From the IMG/VR virus record IMGVR_UViG_2693429676_000011: DNA of 10,097 bases; one strand, 5' to 3'. The notes beneath the pieces are model-generated. The model was not told the origin of the DNA, made no database searches, and worked only from the letters and a program-made list of their open reading frames with translations. Made by a program: the position numbers and the translations under genes. This DNA is from a virus. Lineage: Duplodnaviria; Heunggongvirae; Uroviricota; Caudoviricetes. Position 1 is the stretch's first letter; the number at the start of each line of letters is the position of its first letter. Below, in pieces: positions 139 to 10,097 of this stretch.

Positions 139-453
139 CTAACAACCCGTAATCGAGTTATCAGAACTGTTAATTTTTATGGTATACCGCGCCTCTGAAC
201 AGGGGCGCGTTTCTGGCAACAGCTCGTCCCCTTCACATAACCCGGCAGCAACATCCAAGAAGACCTGTCTGATGCTCCTTCTGGCTGCTGCCTCATAAAA
301 CTCCAGCGCGGCACCTTCAACACGGTCCAGCGAGATGTCCAGGTCAAAAATTTCACCGTCAAAGCGTTTTTTGTCCCGTAACGCTAAAGTTACCGTAACT
401 TTATTCTCAAAATTGCGGATCCCTTTCACAATCAGTTCATAGTTTTGAGTCAT
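139..453 (-). CDS. Small phage protein of unknown function, DUF1327/YdfR-like, 104 aa
   Basis: Complete ORF starting 4 nt after the holin stop. Placement between holin and putative endolysin matches the essQ-ydfR-rrrQ arrangement recalled from Qin-type prophages. Family assignment is from memory, not a search. Confidence 0.6.
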   Translation of the reverse strand: MTQNYELIVKGIRNFENKVTVTLALRDKKRFDGEIFDLDISLDRVEGAALEFYEAAARRSIRQVFLDVAAGLCEGDELLPETRPCSEARYTIKINSSDNSITGC

Positions 454-457
454 TGAA

Positions 458-673
458 TTACTCTCCCCGTGCAGCCTTACGACGGTCCTCTCTGATTTTG
501 AAATACAGGTTAGTCAGATATGTCAGCAGCCCAAACAGCAGACTCCCCAGCACGCCTATTGCCGCCCACTGAGACGGGGAAACCCTGTCCAGCAACTGCA
601 GGAACCAGTAGCCCGTTCCCACCGCTGACGTGGTGTATGACACACCTGTTGTGATTTTTTCCATCTGGTACAT
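458..673 (-). CDS. Class II holin, phage 21 S-type (pinholin-like), 71 aa with dual-start motif
   Basis: Translation [71 protein letters not shown] closely resembles phage 21 S. Two Met codons at positions 1 and 4 (673..671 and 664..662) fit the antiholin/holin dual start. GGGAG lies 7 nt upstream of the ATG at 673. The six-frame ORF extends to 751, but that extension has no matching homology or RBS. Confidence 0.85.
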
Positions 674-708
674 ACCCCGTCTCCCGTTATCCGGAAGCTG
701 ACAACAAT

Positions 709-738
709 AAAAAAAGCCACCAGTTAAGTACTGATGGC
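709..738 (-). terminator. Putative intrinsic terminator between nanS-p and the holin gene
   Basis: On the minus strand an 8-bp stem (gccatcag / ctggtggc, one G-U pair) with a 7-nt loop is followed by TTTTTTT. Confidence 0.5.
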
Positions 739-823
739 TCTGATAACTCATGCAGGCATCTCAGACGACCCACTGACACTACCGGTGAGTTTAACGATAC
801 CTTCCATTTGGCTGGCTCACTTT

Positions 824-2677
824 TTATGATGATGCCGGTGCATTTATCTCCAGCACCAGACTTTCTATCTCAACGCCATACGCTGCATTTTTGGTAATAT
901 CCGTCAGCGTCAGCGCATTCAGCCCCAGTGTCAGACTGTCTTTTATGACCTGGAATGCCGGGCCAGCCACTCCATTCAGTTTCGGAGTAACCGTGGCACT
1001 GCCGGCGGTGAACACCAGCTCCAGCGTCAGCCAGTCGTTACTGTAATTCCCGAACTCGCCCAACTTTGTGTTTCCTGCTTTCTTGTGATGCATCAGATTC
1101 AGTTTGCCGTCTGTGGTCTGGGTGAAGAACGACATCAGGAACGGGTTACCAGTCCCGGTCATCGCCACGACGTCAGGTAACGCTACATCGGTATACAGAT
1201 AAATTCCCAGACCGAACTGGTTGTTGGTCAGTGCGCCTGACAGTCGAAACTTACAGCTCAGTCTGCCACCCCGTGTCAGCAGGGAGACTGCGTCATCCAC
1301 CGGGCGCGTCAGGGACCAGGCTTTATTGCTCTGCTTGGTGATCTTAAATACACCATCTGACAACTGAACTCCGCCATTCTTAATGCTCCAGCCCTGCGCA
1401 GCAGCGTCTCCGGCTGTCGGCAACAGGGAGATTGTGCGTATGGATGCATCTTCAGACGGCCCCGATGGCGTGTCGCCGCCGGGCGAGGGTTTGATTTCCG
1501 GTGCCTTACCACTAATGAAGGCTAAGGTGCGACCGGCTACGTTCAGAATAGCAGTTGCCATACGATCGGGAATAATGCCACGACGCGCCCATGAGCTGAA
1601 ATGCGTCGGGCGATTTGATGATACCCAGTTTTTGTTCGTTCGGGATGCCGAACCGTAATAACCAGACCCGGCAATATCAGGATCTTCTGACGGGTTGTTT
1701 GTCGGTGTATTAACTCCGCTACCATCGGTCATAAAGGGAACAAAATAAATCTGCTGGGATTCTTTACCTTTATATGCACCATATACCACTTCATATTGCG
1801 TACCGTGTTCTTGTTTCCACGCGTATGTCGTGTCGCCACAAATCCAGGGGACTGATGCCGGACTTCCACCGTGACACTGCGCCGCCAGCCCGGCAAGGTC
1901 AGCACGGAACTGCTGTACCATTGCAAGAAATGCTGCTGGCTGCTGGGCGTAACTGGCATTCGTCATATCGAATTCCCCCTGCATCCAGCATATCGCCAGC
2001 AAAACGTTTTTCGGGTTTTTCTGCAATGCTGCCTTCGTGCGGAAAAGCAGATCCTGATATAACGGCTTACCCACTCCCCAGCGAGCCGAATCCTGACTGG
2101 CCCCCGTGGACTCGCTGAATGTCCCCTCCGTGCCCTGGGTGAATGCCGAACCACCACAACAGCATGGTACCAGCAGGATCCCCGCATTATTAGGGATATA
2201 CGGAAGCAGTTTTTTGGCAATATGTAAGCCCTGTCCGACACAGCCGTACTGCCCTTTGCTCAGGTCAGCCCGGGGATGGTTAATCGTACTCATATCCTGA
2301 ACATCATGCAGACAATGGTCAGCAGGAATGATGTCGTTAAATACGCATACTTCACCACCGGGAGTCACTGTGTTACGACGGGCCAGTTGCTTAATGCGCG
2401 GATGGGGCGCATCGTATGAATCCGGAAGCGGAAGACCTTCACCGTAAGCCATGGCATTGGATTGCCCGGCCAGTACGATGACGTAGTACCACTCCGGCTC
2501 AGTTGCACCACTGACGACCACATCACCTTCTGCTGCAATCGCCTGCATCAGGGTATAAGGGGTTATGGCCACCGGACTACCAAACGGCTGCCAGCCCTCC
2601 TTCAGTTTTTGTGTCAGTCGTTTCGCAAGGTCTGACGGCGATGCCGCCCTGACCACGTCATAGTGTTTAAATGCCAT
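824..2677 (-). CDS. nanS-p: Prophage-encoded sialate O-acetylesterase (NanS-p family, SASA/SGNH hydrolase), 617 aa
   Basis: Long ORF with the SASA active-site block VIVLAGQSNAMAYGEG and an N-terminus MAFKHYDVVRAASPSDLAKRLTQKLKEGWQPFGSPVAITP that matches my recollection of NanS-p proteins encoded downstream of stx in EHEC lambdoid prophages. GGAGGA precedes the ATG. It occupies the canonical position between the tRNA/stx site and the lysis genes. Confidence 0.9.
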   Translation of the reverse strand: MAFKHYDVVRAASPSDLAKRLTQKLKEGWQPFGSPVAITPYTLMQAIAAEGDVVVSGATEPEWYYVIVLAGQSNAMAYGEGLPLPDSYDAPHPRIKQLARRNTVTPGGEVCVFNDIIPADHCLHDVQDMSTINHPRADLSKGQYGCVGQGLHIAKKLLPYIPNNAGILLVPCCCGGSAFTQGTEGTFSESTGASQDSARWGVGKPLYQDLLFRTKAALQKNPKNVLLAICWMQGEFDMTNASYAQQPAAFLAMVQQFRADLAGLAAQCHGGSPASVPWICGDTTYAWKQEHGTQYEVVYGAYKGKESQQIYFVPFMTDGSGVNTPTNNPSEDPDIAGSGYYGSASRTNKNWVSSNRPTHFSSWARRGIIPDRMATAILNVAGRTLAFISGKAPEIKPSPGGDTPSGPSEDASIRTISLLPTAGDAAAQGWSIKNGGVQLSDGVFKITKQSNKAWSLTRPVDDAVSLLTRGGRLSCKFRLSGALTNNQFGLGIYLYTDVALPDVVAMTGTGNPFLMSFFTQTTDGKLNLMHHKKAGNTKLGEFGNYSNDWLTLELVFTAGSATVTPKLNGVAGPAFQVIKDSLTLGLNALTLTDITKNAAYGVEIESLVLEINAPASS

Positions 2678-3652: not shown

Positions 3653-3729
3653 TGGCGCGTTGTACTGGATTCGAACCAGTGACCGATTGCTTAGAAGGCA
3701 ATTGCTCTGTCCGGCTGAGCTAACAACGC
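3653..3729 (-). tRNA. tRNA-Arg, anticodon UCU (reads AGA)
   Basis: Manual cloverleaf on the reverse complement: GCGTTGT TA GCTC AGCCGGACA GAGC A ATTGC CTTCTAA GCAAT CGGTC ACTGG TTCGAAT CCAGT ACAACGC G CCA. Perfect 7-bp acceptor stem, 5-bp anticodon and T stems, TTCGAAT T-loop, encoded CCA; 77 nt. Confidence 0.9.
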
Positions 3730-3742
3730 ATGATGCAGATAA

Positions 3743-3819
3743 TGGACCGCCATCGGGGACTTGAACCCCGCGCAGCCAGCTTCGAAGGCTGGCGCTCTTT
3801 CCTGATGAGCTAATGGCGG
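3743..3819 (-). tRNA. tRNA-Arg, anticodon UCG (reads CGA), atypical C1-G72 and D-loop
   Basis: Reverse complement folds as CCGCCAT TA GCTC ATCAGGAAA GAGC G CCAGC CTTCGAA GCTGG CTGCG CGGGG TTCAAGT CCCCG ATGGCGG T CCA. All stems are perfect and CCA is encoded; 77 nt. First base C and the unusual D-loop lower confidence slightly. Confidence 0.8.
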
Positions 3820-3826
3820 TATGTGA

Positions 3827-3902
3827 TGGTGGCCCTTGCTGGATTTGAACCAGCGACCTGGCGATTATGAGTCGCTCGCTCTCACCACTGAGCTAAAGGG
3901 CC
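3827..3902 (-). tRNA. tRNA with CAU anticodon, ileX/ileZ-like (Ile2 lysidine type or Met)
   Basis: Reverse complement GGCCCTT TA GCTC AGTGGTGA GAGC G AGCGA CTCATAA TCGCC AGGTC GCTGG TTCAAAT CCAGC AAGGGCC A CCA; 76 nt. Near-identical in architecture to my recollection of E. coli ileX. Lambdoid Stx phages carry an ileZ-argN-argO trio at this position. Confidence 0.85.
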
Positions 3903-3942: not shown

Positions 3943-5001
3943 TCATCCGTTCTGGCTGACTAAATCCTGTACTTCCCGAACCGTCTGCTCAAAACGTTCA
4001 GTCTCCAGCTCAACGCCAATTGCACGACGCCCGAGCGCCAGTGCCGCTTTCACTGTCGAACCCAACCCCATGAAAAAATCTGCAATCAGGTCACCCGGAC
4101 GACTGCTAGCGCTGATTATCTGCTGCAGCATTTCTGCCGGTTTTTCGCACGGATGTTTCCCGGGATAGAACTGCACCGGTTTATGCGTCCACACATCGGT
4201 ATACGGCACCTGCACCGTCACGCCAAAATACCGCCGCAGATGTTTATATTCACTCAGCAGCTCCGCATACTGCCGGTTCAGTGAGGTATACGTATCCACC
4301 AGCTGGTGGTGGAGCTTTTCCAGTTCACCACGCCGATGCTTCTCTTCTGCCACCCGGGCAAACAGCGCCTGTAATTTCAGATAATCGCTTTCATTCGGCA
4401 ACTGCCACTGACCGGCACTGAACCAGTGCGACACCATGTTTTTCTTTCCTGTGGCATCTGCAATCTGTTTTGCCGTTATCCCCAGGGCAGCTCGCGCATC
4501 ACGAAAGTAAGAAATCAGCGGGGCCATCACATGCTGTTTCAGTGCACTGCCCTTCGCCGCATACCCGGCATCTTTCGGACGATACGGCCCCTGATAATGT
4601 TCCGCGAACAGAATGCGCTCTGTGGCGGGGAAATACGCCCGCAGGCTTTCCTTGTTGCATCCGTTCCAGCGTCCGGACGGCTTCGCCCAGATAATATGGT
4701 TCAGCACACTGAAGCGTTCACGCATCATGATTTCGATATCAGATGCCAGGCGATGACCACAGAACAGGTAAAGACTTCCGGCAGGTTTCAGCACCCGCCA
4801 GAACTGCGCCAGACACTGGTCCAGCCACTTCAGGTAATCATCGTCGCCCTTCCACTGGTTATCCCAGCCCTCAGGCTTCACTTTAAAGTACGGCGGGTCC
4901 GTGACTATCAGGTCAACAGAATTTTCGGGTAACGACCGGATAAATTCCAGGCAGTCGGCGTTGATTAACTCACAACTGGATATTTTTACAGTATTAAGCA
5001 T
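3943..5001 (-). CDS. Orphan phage DNA methyltransferase (amino-methyltransferase fold), 352 aa
   Basis: DPPY motif near the N-terminus (LIVTDPPYF) and an FxGxG SAM-binding motif near the C-terminus (FFMGLGST), with a large insert between them. No restriction endonuclease partner in the window. Matches the position of the methylase gene between Q and the tRNAs that I recall in some Stx phages. The Shine-Dalgarno is weak, so the exact start is uncertain. Confidence 0.85.
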   Translation of the reverse strand: MLNTVKISSCELINADCLEFIRSLPENSVDLIVTDPPYFKVKPEGWDNQWKGDDDYLKWLDQCLAQFWRVLKPAGSLYLFCGHRLASDIEIMMRERFSVLNHIIWAKPSGRWNGCNKESLRAYFPATERILFAEHYQGPYRPKDAGYAAKGSALKQHVMAPLISYFRDARAALGITAKQIADATGKKNMVSHWFSAGQWQLPNESDYLKLQALFARVAEEKHRRGELEKLHHQLVDTYTSLNRQYAELLSEYKHLRRYFGVTVQVPYTDVWTHKPVQFYPGKHPCEKPAEMLQQIISASSRPGDLIADFFMGLGSTVKAALALGRRAIGVELETERFEQTVREVQDLVSQNG

Positions 5002-5573: not shown

Positions 5574-6395
5574 TTACCTAGTTACCTTTTTTAACTGCCG
5601 CTCAGCCCATGCTTCTTCAATATCAAACCGGGTCACCAGCGCATCATAAAATTTCTTAACTGTTTTTTCCCATGACGCGCGTGTTATCTGGTTTGTCACC
5701 TCGCATATAGCATTAAATGCCTCCGTTGATGGTAGTCTTTCATAGCCACGACCACCACAACGCTGGCAGTCTCTGATAACAGGCATACCACGTTTTACCG
5801 ACTCTTCACGATGAATGGCGACACCACGCCCACGGCAATCCTTACAGGCGGTGGAAACCTCACCCTTTCCGCCACACTCCGGACAGGCAACTTTTACCAC
5901 CTCCCTGACTTTTTTCCATTCTTCCCAGTAAGACGGATACACACCTTTCGTACACTTTGCCCATACCGGCGGCTTACCATCCGGATACTGGATCTTGTTT
6001 GTAAAAACCTCGCTTTCAATAAATTTTTTTCCGTGACAGCAGGGGCACTGTTTTTTGCTCGCCGCGCTACGGGCATAATCTTCAAACGCATACGAAGCCA
6101 TAATACGCATCACTGCCGGTTTTATTTCTGCCGGGAGTTTTCTTAACGCCGCCACGCGATCACACCGACTGAGTGCATATTCTGTCAGCAATTCTGTTGC
6201 CCGCTCTCTGTCATTCATACTAATGCCCATTTTCCCAAGGAACGCAGAAACCCCCATCTCAGCCCGATTCTGTGTCATGCCCTGCGCGGCCATCACATCA
6301 GTGATACTCAGCGCATCTTTCGACGTTGAGGCCGATGCATCAGTCAGGCCGGGGGATTTTGGGGAGTAGTATTTCGGTAAATCTTCCAGTTTCAT
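5574..6395 (-). CDS. Late antiterminator Q (QuuQ/Q82-like, with DnaJ-type CxxCxGxG zinc motifs), 273 aa
   Basis: Lies immediately upstream of the pR'-like promoter and downstream of rusA sequence. Cys-rich motifs CPECGGKG, CKDCRGRG, CQRCGGRG. Start ATG overlaps the TGA of a 37-codon rusA 3' remnant (ATGA). Family call is from memory plus position, not a search. Confidence 0.75.
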   Translation of the reverse strand: MKLEDLPKYYSPKSPGLTDASASTSKDALSITDVMAAQGMTQNRAEMGVSAFLGKMGISMNDRERATELLTEYALSRCDRVAALRKLPAEIKPAVMRIMASYAFEDYARSAASKKQCPCCHGKKFIESEVFTNKIQYPDGKPPVWAKCTKGVYPSYWEEWKKVREVVKVACPECGGKGEVSTACKDCRGRGVAIHREESVKRGMPVIRDCQRCGGRGYERLPSTEAFNAICEVTNQITRASWEKTVKKFYDALVTRFDIEEAWAERQLKKVTR

Positions 6396-6562
6396 TTTTT
6401 GACCTGCCCTTCAAGCATTATGGGATAAATCTTCACCCCCAGACGTCCACCAGATACTGGCTGAGCACGAACGATATTGATTTCATCAAACTGCTCATCG
6501 TCCATTAACGGCGCTTATCCGGTGGTTCTGCAATAATTTTTATTGCCAACCTTCCGGACAGG
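5890..6562 (-). repeat. Tandem duplication, copy A (Q 5' part, rusA 3' remnant, junction)
   Basis: 5890..6507 aligns with 6563..7182 at an offset of 675 bp. 53 bp at 6510..6562 match 7247..7299. The 11-bp tccggacaggc occurs at 5879..5889, 6552..6562 and 7289..7299. Confidence 0.85.
6392..6505 (-). pseudogene. Duplicated 3' remnant of rusA (37 codons, MDDEQFDEINIVRAQPVSGGRLGVKIYPIMLEGQVKK) upstream of full-length Q
   Basis: Block 6396..6507 is identical to 7071..7182, the 3' end of intact rusA. Retains an in-frame ATG and the ATGA overlap with the Q start. Confidence 0.6.
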
Positions 6563-7070
6563 CAACTTTTACCACCTCCCTGACTTTTTTCCATTCTTCC
6601 CAGTAAGACGGATACACACCTTTCGTACACTTTGCCCATACCGGCGGCTTACCATCCGGATACTGGACCTTGTTTGTAAAAACTACGCTTTCAATAAATT
6701 TTTCCCCATAGCAACAAGGGCACTGCTTTTTACTCGCTGCGCTGCGGGCATAATCCTCAAAAGCGTACGAAGCCATAATGCGCATCACTACCGGTTTTAT
6801 TTCTGCCGGAAGTTTTCTCAACGCCGCCACACGATCGCACCGACTGAGTGCATAATCTGCCAGTAATTCTGTTGCCCGCGCCCTGTCATTCATACTAATG
6901 CCCATTTTCCCAAGGAACGCAGAAACCCCCATCTCAGCCCGATTCTGTGTCATGCCCTGCGCGGCCATCACATCAGTGATACTCAGCGCATCTTTCGACG
7001 TTGAGGCCGATGCATCAGTCAGGCCGGGGGATTTTGGGGAGTAGTATTTCGGTAAATCTTCCAGTTTCAT
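6540..7070 (-). pseudogene. Truncated paralog of Q (Q'), 176 codons: the Q N-terminal region (through KVACPE) plus 3 junction codons
   Basis: Matches full Q through ...KVREVVKVACPE, then reads GWQ-stop across the duplication junction. Eight amino-acid differences from Q cluster in the middle. Start ATG overlaps the rusA TGA (ATGA). Confidence 0.7.
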
Positions 7071-9113: not shown

Positions 9114-9235
9114 CAACAGAATCCTTCCAGATAAATAGCACTCCCCTGTTCGGGGTCCATCCCTCTTCTCCCTGCGCGCTACTTAAGTATTTTTGATTCT
9201 ATTCCGGCACCATCTAAAACTTCAAACGCGTTGAA

Positions 9236-9264
9236 AATAAAAACAAAAACCCGCCGAAGCGGGT
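9236..9264 (-). terminator. Intrinsic terminator of the hok transcript
   Basis: Minus-strand RNA ACCCGC-UUCG-GCGGGU followed by UUUUUGUUUUUAUUUU, about 70 nt after the hok stop. Confidence 0.7.
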
Positions 9265-9333
9265 TAAGTGTGGGTGCATTGAGGATGCCTGACCCATCAG
9301 AGGTGGCGAGGGATTTCTCCCCCGCCTGGTCTC

Positions 9334-9489
9334 TTACTCCTCAGGTTCGTAAGCTGTGAAGACAGCGACCTCCGTCTGGCCGGTTCGAATTCGTACCTCG
9401 CAGAGGTCTTTCCTCGTTACCAGTGCCGTCACAATGACGGTTAAACAGATGACGATCAGGGCGATTAACATCGCCTTTTGCTGCTTCAT
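9334..9489 (-). CDS. hokD: Hok-family type I toxin (HokD/RelF-like), 51 aa
   Basis: Translation MKQQKAMLIALIVICLTVIVTALVTRKDLCEVRIRTGQTEVAVFTAYEPEE matches my recollection of E. coli HokD/RelF. An upstream in-frame ATG at 9546 gives the 70-aa six-frame ORF and sits where mok lies in hok/sok loci. Confidence 0.9.
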   Translation of the reverse strand: MKQQKAMLIALIVICLTVIVTALVTRKDLCEVRIRTGQTEVAVFTAYEPEE

Positions 9490-9537
9490 AGCCTGCTTCT
9501 CCTTGCCTTTCGGCACGTAAGAGGCTAACCTAGATTT

Positions 9538-9608
9538 GCCGTTCATAGATTGAGCCTCAGATTAATGTTAAGCGTCTTGCCGGACGCGTAATGTTAACTG
9601 GGGCTTTT
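9538..9608 (+). ncRNA. Candidate Sok-like antisense RNA of the hok locus
   Basis: Plus-strand promoter-like elements: -35 TTGCCT (9503..9508), 17-nt spacer, -10 TAACCT (9526..9531). They parallel the R1 sok promoter as I recall it (TTGCGC, 17 nt, TATCCT). The predicted transcript is antisense to the mok start region and ends in a U-rich stretch (cuuuucucuaucugccuuuu). Ends are approximate. Confidence 0.4.
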
Positions 9609-9665
9609 CTCTATCTGCCTTTTGGTGTTCATGCCTGAGACAGATAGCCTCAAGCACCCGCTGCA

Positions 9666-9693
9666 ATTCTACTTAACTCTCCTTTTCCCGCAA
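9666..9693 (-). promoter_or_regulatory. Putative hok mRNA promoter
   Basis: Minus strand -35 TTGCGG (rc of 9688..9693), 16-nt spacer, -10 TAGAAT (rc of 9666..9671). The downstream sequence GCUUGAGGCUAUCUGUCUCA resembles the 5' end of R1 hok mRNA (GCUUGAGGCUUUCUGCCUCA) as I recall it. Confidence 0.5.
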
Positions 9694-9700
9694 ACCGTTT

Positions 9701-9784
9701 TTATCCCCAGCGGCAAATCGAATACACCACCAGCGCCACCGCCATCGCAATTCCTACCGTTGTTAATGCTTCAGGCCAGGTCAT
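9701..9784 (-). CDS. Candidate 27-aa hydrophobic membrane peptide [27 protein letters not shown]
   Basis: ATG overlaps the TGA of the upstream 103-aa ORF (ATGA). One predicted transmembrane segment. No Shine-Dalgarno was assessed, so the ORF is speculative. Confidence 0.3.
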
Positions 9785-10092
9785 CGTAAAATATCCTCCA
9801 CGCTTATCAGTCCGTTCCGCTCCAGATAACTCATCGCCTTATCCGGTAATTTGCAGTCTGGCTTCGCTTTTCTCAGTTGCCAGGTTAACTGCTTTACCAG
9901 CATGGTTAACTCATCGACCAGACGCTGATATCCCACTGGTTTGTATTCATGCAATTTACCGGCTGGCTCTGCTGCCAGCGATACCAGTGCGATTTCCAGA
10001 ACAGCAATATCCATCTTATATGTGCGGATGATGTCATGGTCGATTGTGCCCGGTATGCACAGTCTAGACTGGCCCCCTGAATCTCCAGACAA
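9781..10092 (-). CDS. Hypothetical protein, at least 103 aa, at the window edge
   Basis: Intact ORF ending ...[20 protein letters not shown]. No family recognised. It is not RelE or RelB by comparison with their sequences as I recall them. The true start may be internal ([10 protein letters not shown]...) or beyond the window. Confidence 0.45.
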
Positions 10093-10097
10093 CCAGT

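Follow-up and report, generated by a model that had tools for sequence, protein, structure and literature searches.

Enterobacterial type I toxins such as Hok/Gef, TisB, DinQ, ShoB, Ibs and Ldr are proteins of fewer than 60 amino acids (aa) with one predicted inner-membrane helix, and they easily go unannotated. Their messenger RNAs (mRNAs) are structured, the opposite of a message whose Shine-Dalgarno (SD) sequence lies exposed. A second class, the small regulatory inner-membrane proteins of E. coli such as KdpF, AcrZ, MgtS, MgrB, CydX and PmrR, comprises single-pass helices of 27–50 aa that pack against a larger membrane protein; small-residue motifs are typical of such packing helices, and KdpF is translationally linked to its operon. 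The host-directed early proteins of lambdoid phages (DicB, Kil/KilR, YdfD, Ea8.5, Orf63) are non-essential accessory products, usually shorter than 100 aa and mostly soluble. DicB alters inner-membrane phage receptors (PMC6832061), and genes of the exo-xis region influence the lysis-lysogeny decision (PMC7093339, PMC8614690). Here we describe a 27-codon open reading frame (ORF) that lies next to a hok/sok locus in IMG/VR virus record IMGVR_UViG_2693429676_000011, a stretch of 10,097 nucleotides (nt) called the window below. We favour the reading, at a probability of roughly 60%, that this ORF specifies a single-pass microprotein of the inner membrane, translated from early phage transcripts by coupling to the gene before it and having no connection with hok.

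The likeness to each of these systems is partial. The peptide shares small size and a single predicted helix with the type I toxins, but it has no sequence relation to them, its helix is much less hydrophobic than that of Hok, and it has no promoter, antisense RNA or structured leader of its own; its expression is predicted to depend instead on stop/start coupling within a phage operon. With the KdpF, AcrZ and MgtS class it has in common a small-residue motif, G11xxxA15, whereas its phage-borne, mobile gene has no fixed neighbouring membrane-protein gene. It resembles the lambdoid early proteins as a small accessory product, but shows no homology to DicB, Kil, YdfD, Ea8.5 or Orf63, is far smaller, and is essentially a predicted transmembrane helix alone; further, K-12 lacks it in its Rac and Qin prophages, where DicB/Kil-type proteins were studied. 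In gene arrangement there is a parallel with the ATGA-coupled strings of the lambdoid nin and ea regions, which likewise have stop/start overlaps, an SD in the preceding gene and mosaic junctions at gene boundaries. Unlike those strings, the unit here is only 27 codons long and has been re-used after at least 12 upstream genes with three recurrent junctions.

The 27-codon gene and its conservation

The ORF and its translation signals lie close to the right-hand end of the window:

9784..9701, minus strand: 27-codon microprotein ORF with its TAA stop, read from the sequence
9781..9784, minus strand: ATGA stop/start overlap, in which the upstream TGA (9783-9781) meets the microprotein ATG (9784-9782), read from the sequence
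9799-9795, minus strand: Shine-Dalgarno GGAGG, 10 nt ahead of the microprotein ATG and within the 3' end of the upstream gene

The first-pass annotation had described an ORF encoding one hydrophobic helix, overlapping the stop of the ORF upstream and ending just short of the hok -35 element. All three points hold: residues 6-24 are hydrophobic, the overlap is an ATGA at 9784-9781, and the -35 begins 8 nt beyond the TAA stop (9703-9701, minus strand). A length of 27 codons is by itself no more than chance; the conservation exceeds chance, and on comparative grounds the ORF is very probably a genuine, selected phage gene.

Two sets of loci were assembled. The first came from an IMG/VR scan for the invariant hok promoter stretch, which returned 120 contigs; these, the window and previously fetched annotated loci together gave 105 loci with a homologue of the small ORF upstream of the hok promoter. 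The frame is kept in 99 of them, 97 being intact at 27 codons and two carrying an in-frame deletion of two codons. In the remaining six the frame is broken: three have lost 1 bp in codon 2, two have TGA in place of TGG at codon 3, and one has a 1-bp deletion near the 3' end. A second set, found through a degenerate pattern inside the ORF, brought the combined total to 185 loci. The length is exactly 27 codons in 181 of these, the start codon is ATG in 178 and GTG in three, and an SD-like motif stands within positions -17 to -3 in every one, other junction types included (CAGGAGGTGAATCAATGA, AGAAGGTGAATCAATGA). In about 181 of the 185 loci the start codon overlaps the stop of the preceding gene as (A/G)TGA, although at least 12 different genes occur in that place. 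The conserved overlap and SD support the translational coupling that the first-pass annotation had proposed, probably to whichever gene happens to lie upstream.

Variation within the ORF has the pattern expected of a coding sequence. Among 72 distinct indel-free alleles, variable site-states are distributed 25/18/41 over the three codon positions, and 36 changes are synonymous against 49 non-synonymous, where the expected synonymous share is 25%. This amounts to an omega of about 0.44 (p = 2.5e-4), whereas the two remaining sense frames give 1.0 and 1.75; a smaller allele set gave an omega of 0.38 (p = 0.0015). Pairwise Nei-Gojobori ratios of non-synonymous to synonymous divergence (dN/dS) run from 0.09 to 0.57, with dS reaching 1.1-1.8 and dN no more than 0.32; in the other frames the ratio is close to 1 or higher. 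The comparison of reading frame and dN/dS across related prophages, put forward as a check in the first-pass annotation, thus finds a conserved frame under purifying selection. The same annotation had listed a chance ORF among its options; we reject it, since frame, length, start, SD and ATGA overlap are kept across some 185 loci and in diverged homologues. An antisense gene, the plus-strand ORF at 9622-9789, was also considered and rejected, as the variable sites fall on its second codon positions.

A translated search (tblastn) across 50,697 phage records found the peptide in 93, and six diverged copies were read:

BP-4795: peptide MNWPEAFTAVGVAIAVAFILYSLFRWG
PhiR12_1: 27-aa peptide
PhiR5_1: peptide MSWPDAIVTLGVVFAAAFVVFSICRWG
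Av-05 (Vequintavirinae): peptide MTWPEAFTTVGVVMAVAFAVYSVCRWG
Plasmid p95NR1A (87 kb): peptide MSWPEAFTTVGIVMAAALGLYSICRWW
An int-proximal prophage copy (L128): peptide identical to that of BP-4795

At 59-67% identity, these copies all retain the 27 codons, the overlap with an upstream stop, and GGAGG or a close variant; in every one of the records, the ORF occupies an unannotated "gap" of 81-87 nt. In an alignment of 14 sequences, M1, A6, G11, A15, S22, R25 and W26 are invariant, and W3, P4, Y21 and C24 are nearly so. Across 38 distinct peptides, M1, A6, S22, R25 and W26 remain invariant, and G11 and A15 each differ in one peptide. Replacements elsewhere are conservative, exchanging one hydrophobic residue for another. 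The lowest dN/dS of all pairs (0.09) involves the Av-05 copy.

Two further observations concern these homologues. Rare variants (P0033, P0071, P0072) carry duplications inside the helix, namely a 15-residue repeat, an AM repeat expanded to MAMAMAMAMA, and an extra LV; judged from these sequences, lengthening of the helix is apparently tolerated to some degree. In Av-05 (L133, KM190144.1, 121 kb), an Ead-like gene and the microprotein gene stand as a coupled pair at 1342-2084. Av-05 is classified in the Vequintavirinae, which we take to be virulent, and the arrangement suggests that the pair may have moved between temperate and virulent phages.

Neighbouring modules

Downstream of the microprotein gene, the window carries a hok/sok locus:

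9666..9693, minus strand: putative hok mRNA promoter, with -35 TTGCGG (9693-9688) and -10 TAGAAT (9671-9666), read from the sequence
9484..9659, minus strand: 5' leader of the hok mRNA, with the region targeted by Sok (Rfam RF01794; 112.4 bits, gathering score 59)
9334..9546, minus strand: mok (70 codons), a separate neighbouring module that contains hok (Pfam HOK_GEF, E = 3e-23)
9489..9334, minus strand: hok (51 codons), within mok, from the PGAP hokD annotation in the related locus L001

The TTGCGG and TAGAAT elements are 16 nt apart, lie just upstream of the Rfam leader start at 9659, and belong to a stretch that is invariant in six aligned relatives; as a hok mRNA promoter the pair is putative, and it stands outside the microprotein module. 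The Sok RNA maps to about 9538-9608 (plus strand) by transfer from the 933W sokW annotation, some 90 nt from the microprotein ORF and without overlap. Just downstream of hok, at 9244-9331 (minus strand), Rfam gives matches below threshold to isrK (25.7 bits; gathering score 50) and to rsmX, which overlap a terminator-like hairpin at 9265-9248. They may be simply the 3' end of the hok mRNA.

The gene content on either side shows that the microprotein gene is a self-contained coding module of 84 nt, or about 100 nt with its SD. Between the window and 933W-type phages, homology extends from hok up to exactly the microprotein ATG and no further. At least 12 protein clusters occur upstream, including the 114-aa PHROG 660 type, several DUF551 types, the 933W L0139 type and genes annotated as Ea22 or EaA, and three junctions recur, at which the upstream proteins end in VEDILR, PEPPQEVNQ or EQKVNQ immediately before the stop. 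Downstream partners are also diverse. Among 80 contigs found through the ORF pattern, 32 continue with hok/sok, 25 with a DUF4222-type gene followed by xis-int, five with a 77-aa large-plasmid gene, and the rest with other genes. A sample chosen independently of hok has the microprotein gene without hok in about 55-60% of cases. Conversely, 20 of 125 usable hok-promoter loci carry unrelated sequence in its place, with the junction within a few bases of the position of the ORF stop. The special relation to hok that its position invites is therefore not borne out; because each module occurs without the other, we regard their adjacency as a mosaic junction with no functional link.

On its upstream side, the first-pass annotation had paired the microprotein with a 103-aa ORF (10092..9781, minus strand). 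This ORF is not a natural gene but a chimera, in which 94 codons of a 114-aa phage gene are preceded by nine codons from the end of insertion sequence IS2:

9781..10065, minus strand: last 94 codons and stop of a phage accessory gene for a 114-aa protein (WP_000206826.1, PHROG 660), from alignment to L001 and L002
10066..10097, plus strand: IS2 terminal inverted repeat (element end), a 100% match beside an IS2 family transposase gene

Homology to every related sequence ends at window base 10065. The stretch 10066-10097 occurs at 100% identity in over 4,000 plasmids, where it precedes, by about 60 nt, a gene annotated as "IS3-like element IS2 family transposase"; the match of bases 10062-10097, also 100%, lies beside an IS2 family transposase gene that is oriented away from the ORFs of the window. 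Since the homology of relatives stops where IS2 begins, the TTG start and first nine codons (MSGDSGGQS) of the 103-aa ORF are IS2 sequence. Uninterrupted relatives have the intact 114-aa version at this place (L001 4482-4826, WP_000206826.1, and phage vB_EcoS-689R5); in the window its first 20 codons have been lost to IS2. Public calls of a 77-aa gene (for example P0023 and P0026) probably derive from other IS2-interrupted copies of this gene.

The 114-aa protein belongs to PHROG 660, a family without assigned function (E = 8.2e-43 for the intact relative, 1.9e-34 for the truncated copy in the window). It has no Pfam or NCBIfam match, and a sequence search of the PDB returned noise only. Its C-terminal 45 residues form a module that also occurs, with 89% identity, in another protein, of 181 aa, from which we conclude that the gene belongs to the mosaic set of early accessory genes in these phages. 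An Ead/Ea22-like identity was considered and rejected, given the lack of an NCBIfam or Pfam match and a BLASTP E-value of 0.46 against an annotated ead/Ea22-like neighbour. With other genes of the array the protein has in common only a short N-terminal motif (MTTFT..., ALxSLxAEP) and the 45-aa C-terminal module.

IS2 cuts the upstream gene 282 nt before the microprotein ATG. The microprotein gene of the window is intact, yet its expression could be poor after the insertion, because transcription from the early promoter must cross IS2, as the general biology of this element would have it, and because the coupling partner is now truncated and chimeric.

Proposed function and competing explanations

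The microprotein gene is always found within early operons, between the replication genes and Q in the window and beside xis/int elsewhere. In phages of E. coli and Shigella its place is constant: it closes the mosaic arrays of early accessory genes (PHROG 660, DUF551 and Ead/Ea22/EaA-like) at their far end. We propose that the peptide would be made from delayed-early transcripts, during lytic growth or induction and not in the quiescent lysogen. Ribosomes terminating at the upstream UGA would restart at the overlapping AUG, aided by a GGAGG 7-10 nt upstream. The tight constraint on the Av-05 copy fits such a role in the lytic cycle.

Two local analyses bear on this arrangement. A promoter scan of 9200-10097 on both strands found no promoter-like site, although simple consensus scans can miss weak promoters; the scan also missed the putative hok promoter, whose -35 agrees with the consensus at only three of six positions. 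At the RNA level, a 151-nt mRNA region folds worse than 196 of 200 shuffled sequences (z = +1.6), and Rfam searches at E ≤ 1 near the ORF returned the hok leader only and no family covering the ORF.

Residues 6-24 form the best 19-residue segment, with a mean Kyte-Doolittle value of 2.0-2.3 (about 2.1 for the window peptide), which passes the Kyte-Doolittle criterion. The peptide is thus predicted to be inserted in the membrane, and probably is. Under the positive-inside rule, its W-P-E acidic cap would be periplasmic and its R25-W26 end cytoplasmic, since R25 is the only basic residue and the cap at the N-terminus is acidic; the predicted topology is N-out, C-in. Ala, Val, Gly and Thr are abundant in the helix, G11xxxA15 is almost invariant, and S22 is invariant. 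The marginal hydrophobicity of the helix, G11xxxA15 and S22 suit helix packing, so that the peptide may modulate a membrane protein or assemble into a small oligomer. A6, G11, A15 and S22 would then pack against a second helix, either in further copies of the peptide or in a host membrane protein, and this packing could alter host membrane function during lytic growth. We lean, by a little over even odds, towards an accessory modulator and away from a stand-alone toxin. The timing of expression, membrane insertion, orientation, helix packing and accessory role are all inferred.

Several observations weigh against this proposal. The antisense frame that shares wobble positions with the ORF also shows a synonymous excess (omega 0.49) and is open for more than 80 codons, from about 9645 to beyond 9900 (plus strand), across both the microprotein and the 114-aa genes. 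Neither within the region nor upstream of it does this frame offer an ATG, GTG or TTG, and its translation is a variable polar sequence; we therefore discount the excess as an expected artefact. Inactivated alleles also occur. The 1-bp deletion in codon 2 (ATGA-CTGG) is widespread, being found in phage 689R5 (L002 4374-4484) and in E. coli genome matches, one of them an ST131 strain, and its background exists otherwise intact in locus L016; two loci have the TGG-to-TGA change at codon 3. Such alleles indicate that the gene is dispensable in resident prophages. On the Hessa scale, the helix is only marginally hydrophobic (-0.9 to +1.6 kcal/mol), and its helical conservation moment is 0.12, so that conservation is not restricted to one face, which weakens the helix-packing step. 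Finally, the peptide sequence was not found in any searchable full text, nor in the supplements of a Ribo-seq paper on small genes of the Sakai strain and of an enterobacterial microproteome preprint.

The size of the peptide and its single hydrophobic helix recall TisB, DinQ, ShoB and Ibs-type toxins. We considered whether it might be a small killing peptide, acting either as a membrane poison of the type I kind or as a Kil-like early-operon product that depolarises or permeabilises the inner membrane. Early operons are where lambdoid phages hold host-killing functions, hok is the neighbour in about 40% of loci, and resident prophages occasionally carry an inactivated allele. However, the hallmarks of a type I toxin (its own promoter, an antisense RNA and a leader that hides the SD) were not found: neither the scan of 9200-10097 nor Rfam gave a promoter of its own or a signal for an antisense promoter or RNA, Sok as placed by transfer from 933W does not reach the ORF, and the SD is exposed in a poorly structured mRNA. 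There is also no match to HOK_GEF or any other toxin family and none in PADLOC, about 94-96% of copies are intact, and the helix is of the Ala/Val/Gly/Thr-rich, marginally hydrophobic kind. The evidence leans away from a Hok-like toxin, and we consider a killing peptide unlikely. A partner that counters Hok or other small toxins, its helix pairing with the Hok transmembrane helix and blocking killing in the lytic cycle, is very unlikely. Such a role would suit a gene that directly precedes hok/sok, as this one does in the window and 32 of the 80 ORF-pattern contigs, and both products would be single-helix inner-membrane peptides. E. coli carries chromosomal and plasmid hok loci, and retention in phages without hok, Av-05 included, could be explained as a counter to exclusion by host or plasmid hok/sok. 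The argument is nevertheless one from adjacency and shared membrane location, whereas the two modules are separable, with recombination junctions at the ORF stop, more than half of the copies lack a hok neighbour, and 20 of the 125 usable hok-promoter loci lack the peptide gene.

Two further explanations dispense with a free-standing peptide. The 84 nt might be kept as DNA or RNA, with the ORF incidental: they could serve as a recombination linker between mosaic modules, contribute to the hok promoter from upstream, or fold as RNA. Among hok-linked alleles the 3' third is nearly invariant in nucleotides, mosaic junctions lie at both ends, and one antisense frame shares the synonymous excess. 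Against this stand third-position variation and dN/dS values of 0.09-0.57 that persist at dS above 1, retention of 27 codons, ATG, SD and stop where neither flanking homology nor hok is present, conservative hydrophobic replacements, the lack of a stable RNA fold, and an antisense frame without a start codon, all of which make an incidental ORF highly improbable. A conserved non-coding element was rejected on similar grounds: the 27-codon frame of the diverged homologues, dN/dS, no fold and no Rfam family. Almost no weight falls on the idea that ribosomes shift into the -1 frame immediately ahead of the TGA and so extend the upstream protein by a membrane anchor. The peptide frame is indeed the -1 frame of the upstream gene, at least 10 upstream codons are open in several junction types, and gene callers sometimes yield N-extended versions. 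However, essentially all copies keep the ATG or GTG and the SD, which frameshifting does not need, none of the three junction types holds a slippery heptamer, and the junction sequences vary between upstream gene families. We therefore continue to prefer a translationally coupled early microprotein.

Distribution, annotation and significance

A 111-nt query around the ORF finds a match in 1,636 of 5,426 complete E. coli genomes (about 30%), and in 1,395 at a coverage of at least 80%; the median is one place per genome and the maximum seven, and 164 places are plasmid-borne. The 1,636 genomes hold roughly 3,100 copies in all. Carriers also include the examined records of 933W-type Stx2 phages, large plasmids with phage-like genes, and Av-05. 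A pattern scan of one genome per species detected the gene in Escherichia and Shigella only, plus three tiny contigs of unrelated genera. The latter (L136, L139 and L142, 369-1,780 bp) are filed under Segatella copri, Xanthomonas pisi and Acinetobacter idrijaensis, and the microprotein sequence on them is most likely assembly contamination. Another unusual record is that of "Actinobacillus phage vB_Apl-pPE4" (L004, PP818812.1), with the recorded host Actinobacillus pleuropneumoniae, which has 96.7% nucleotide identity to the window region over 580 nt spanning hok and the microprotein gene. It looks like an E. coli lambdoid phage, judging by this stretch, and its host assignment seems doubtful. 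No copy is present in the Rac or Qin prophages of K-12 (DLP12 and e14 were not checked), an absence that may explain why small-protein screens in K-12 missed the microprotein.

Public annotation has largely passed over the gene. PGAP never calls it in the examined records, where only the upstream gene is annotated under the match. The exact 27-aa sequence appears in public protein sets as a "putative prophage protein" on 15 contigs, and the frameshift allele gives rise to a spurious 36-aa coding sequence in another frame (URC08898.1) on 158 contigs. A protein search with two variants in tandem found 60 related clusters, all short and "hypothetical", many with false N- or C-terminal extensions; their sources are E. 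coli, Shigella, E. albertii and one partial Salmonella entry. DUF551 proteins are a common upstream neighbour, and several entries for the peptide wrongly bear the name "DUF551 domain-containing protein". A fusion to DUF551 was considered, as one 90%-identity cluster joins the peptide with 185-aa DUF551 proteins, and rejected, as those proteins do not contain the peptide.

Searches of Pfam, NCBIfam, PHROGs, PADLOC and PDB sequences gave nothing significant for the 27-aa peptide. In the Pfam scan (E ≤ 1), DUF883_C was the sole match, with 14.5 bits where the cut-off is 27, and HOK_GEF did not appear. The best PHROG was phrog_4612, with E = 0.011 for one variant and E of at least 0.1 or no match for the others. 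The KdpF model (TIGR02115) scored 12.5 bits against a cut-off of 26.85 (E = 0.12), with no kdp context. The exo-xis literature makes no mention of the peptide.

Elsewhere in the window, tandem genes of the antitermination-protein Q family (Pfam Antiterm) lie downstream of RusA at 5574-6395 (273 aa) and 6540-7070 (176 aa), both on the minus strand. Other prophage cargo comprises:

3943-5001, minus strand: DNA methylase
3653-3902, minus strand: tRNA-Met, tRNA-Arg(TCG) and tRNA-Arg(TCT)
824-2677, minus strand: 617-aa protein with DUF1737, SASA (sialate O-acetylesterase) and DUF6645 domains
458-751, minus strand: P21-type holin
139-453, minus strand: DUF1327 protein

The peptide is a new and essentially unannotated family among the small single-pass membrane proteins of phages. 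A 27-aa gene under purifying selection is present in about 1,400-1,600 of 5,426 complete E. coli genomes, yet it is missing from RefSeq/PGAP, Pfam, NCBIfam and PHROGs, and is sometimes replaced by a spurious 36-aa frameshift ORF. Its recognition reinterprets the 84-nt "intergenic gap" that lambdoid maps show between DUF551/Ea22-like genes and hok or DUF4222. It also offers an example from the "dark" microproteome of phages that comes with defined, near-invariant residues and natural knock-out alleles. Should its target prove to be Hok or a membrane protein of the host, the peptide would represent a new factor by which Stx phages manipulate their hosts early in lytic growth.

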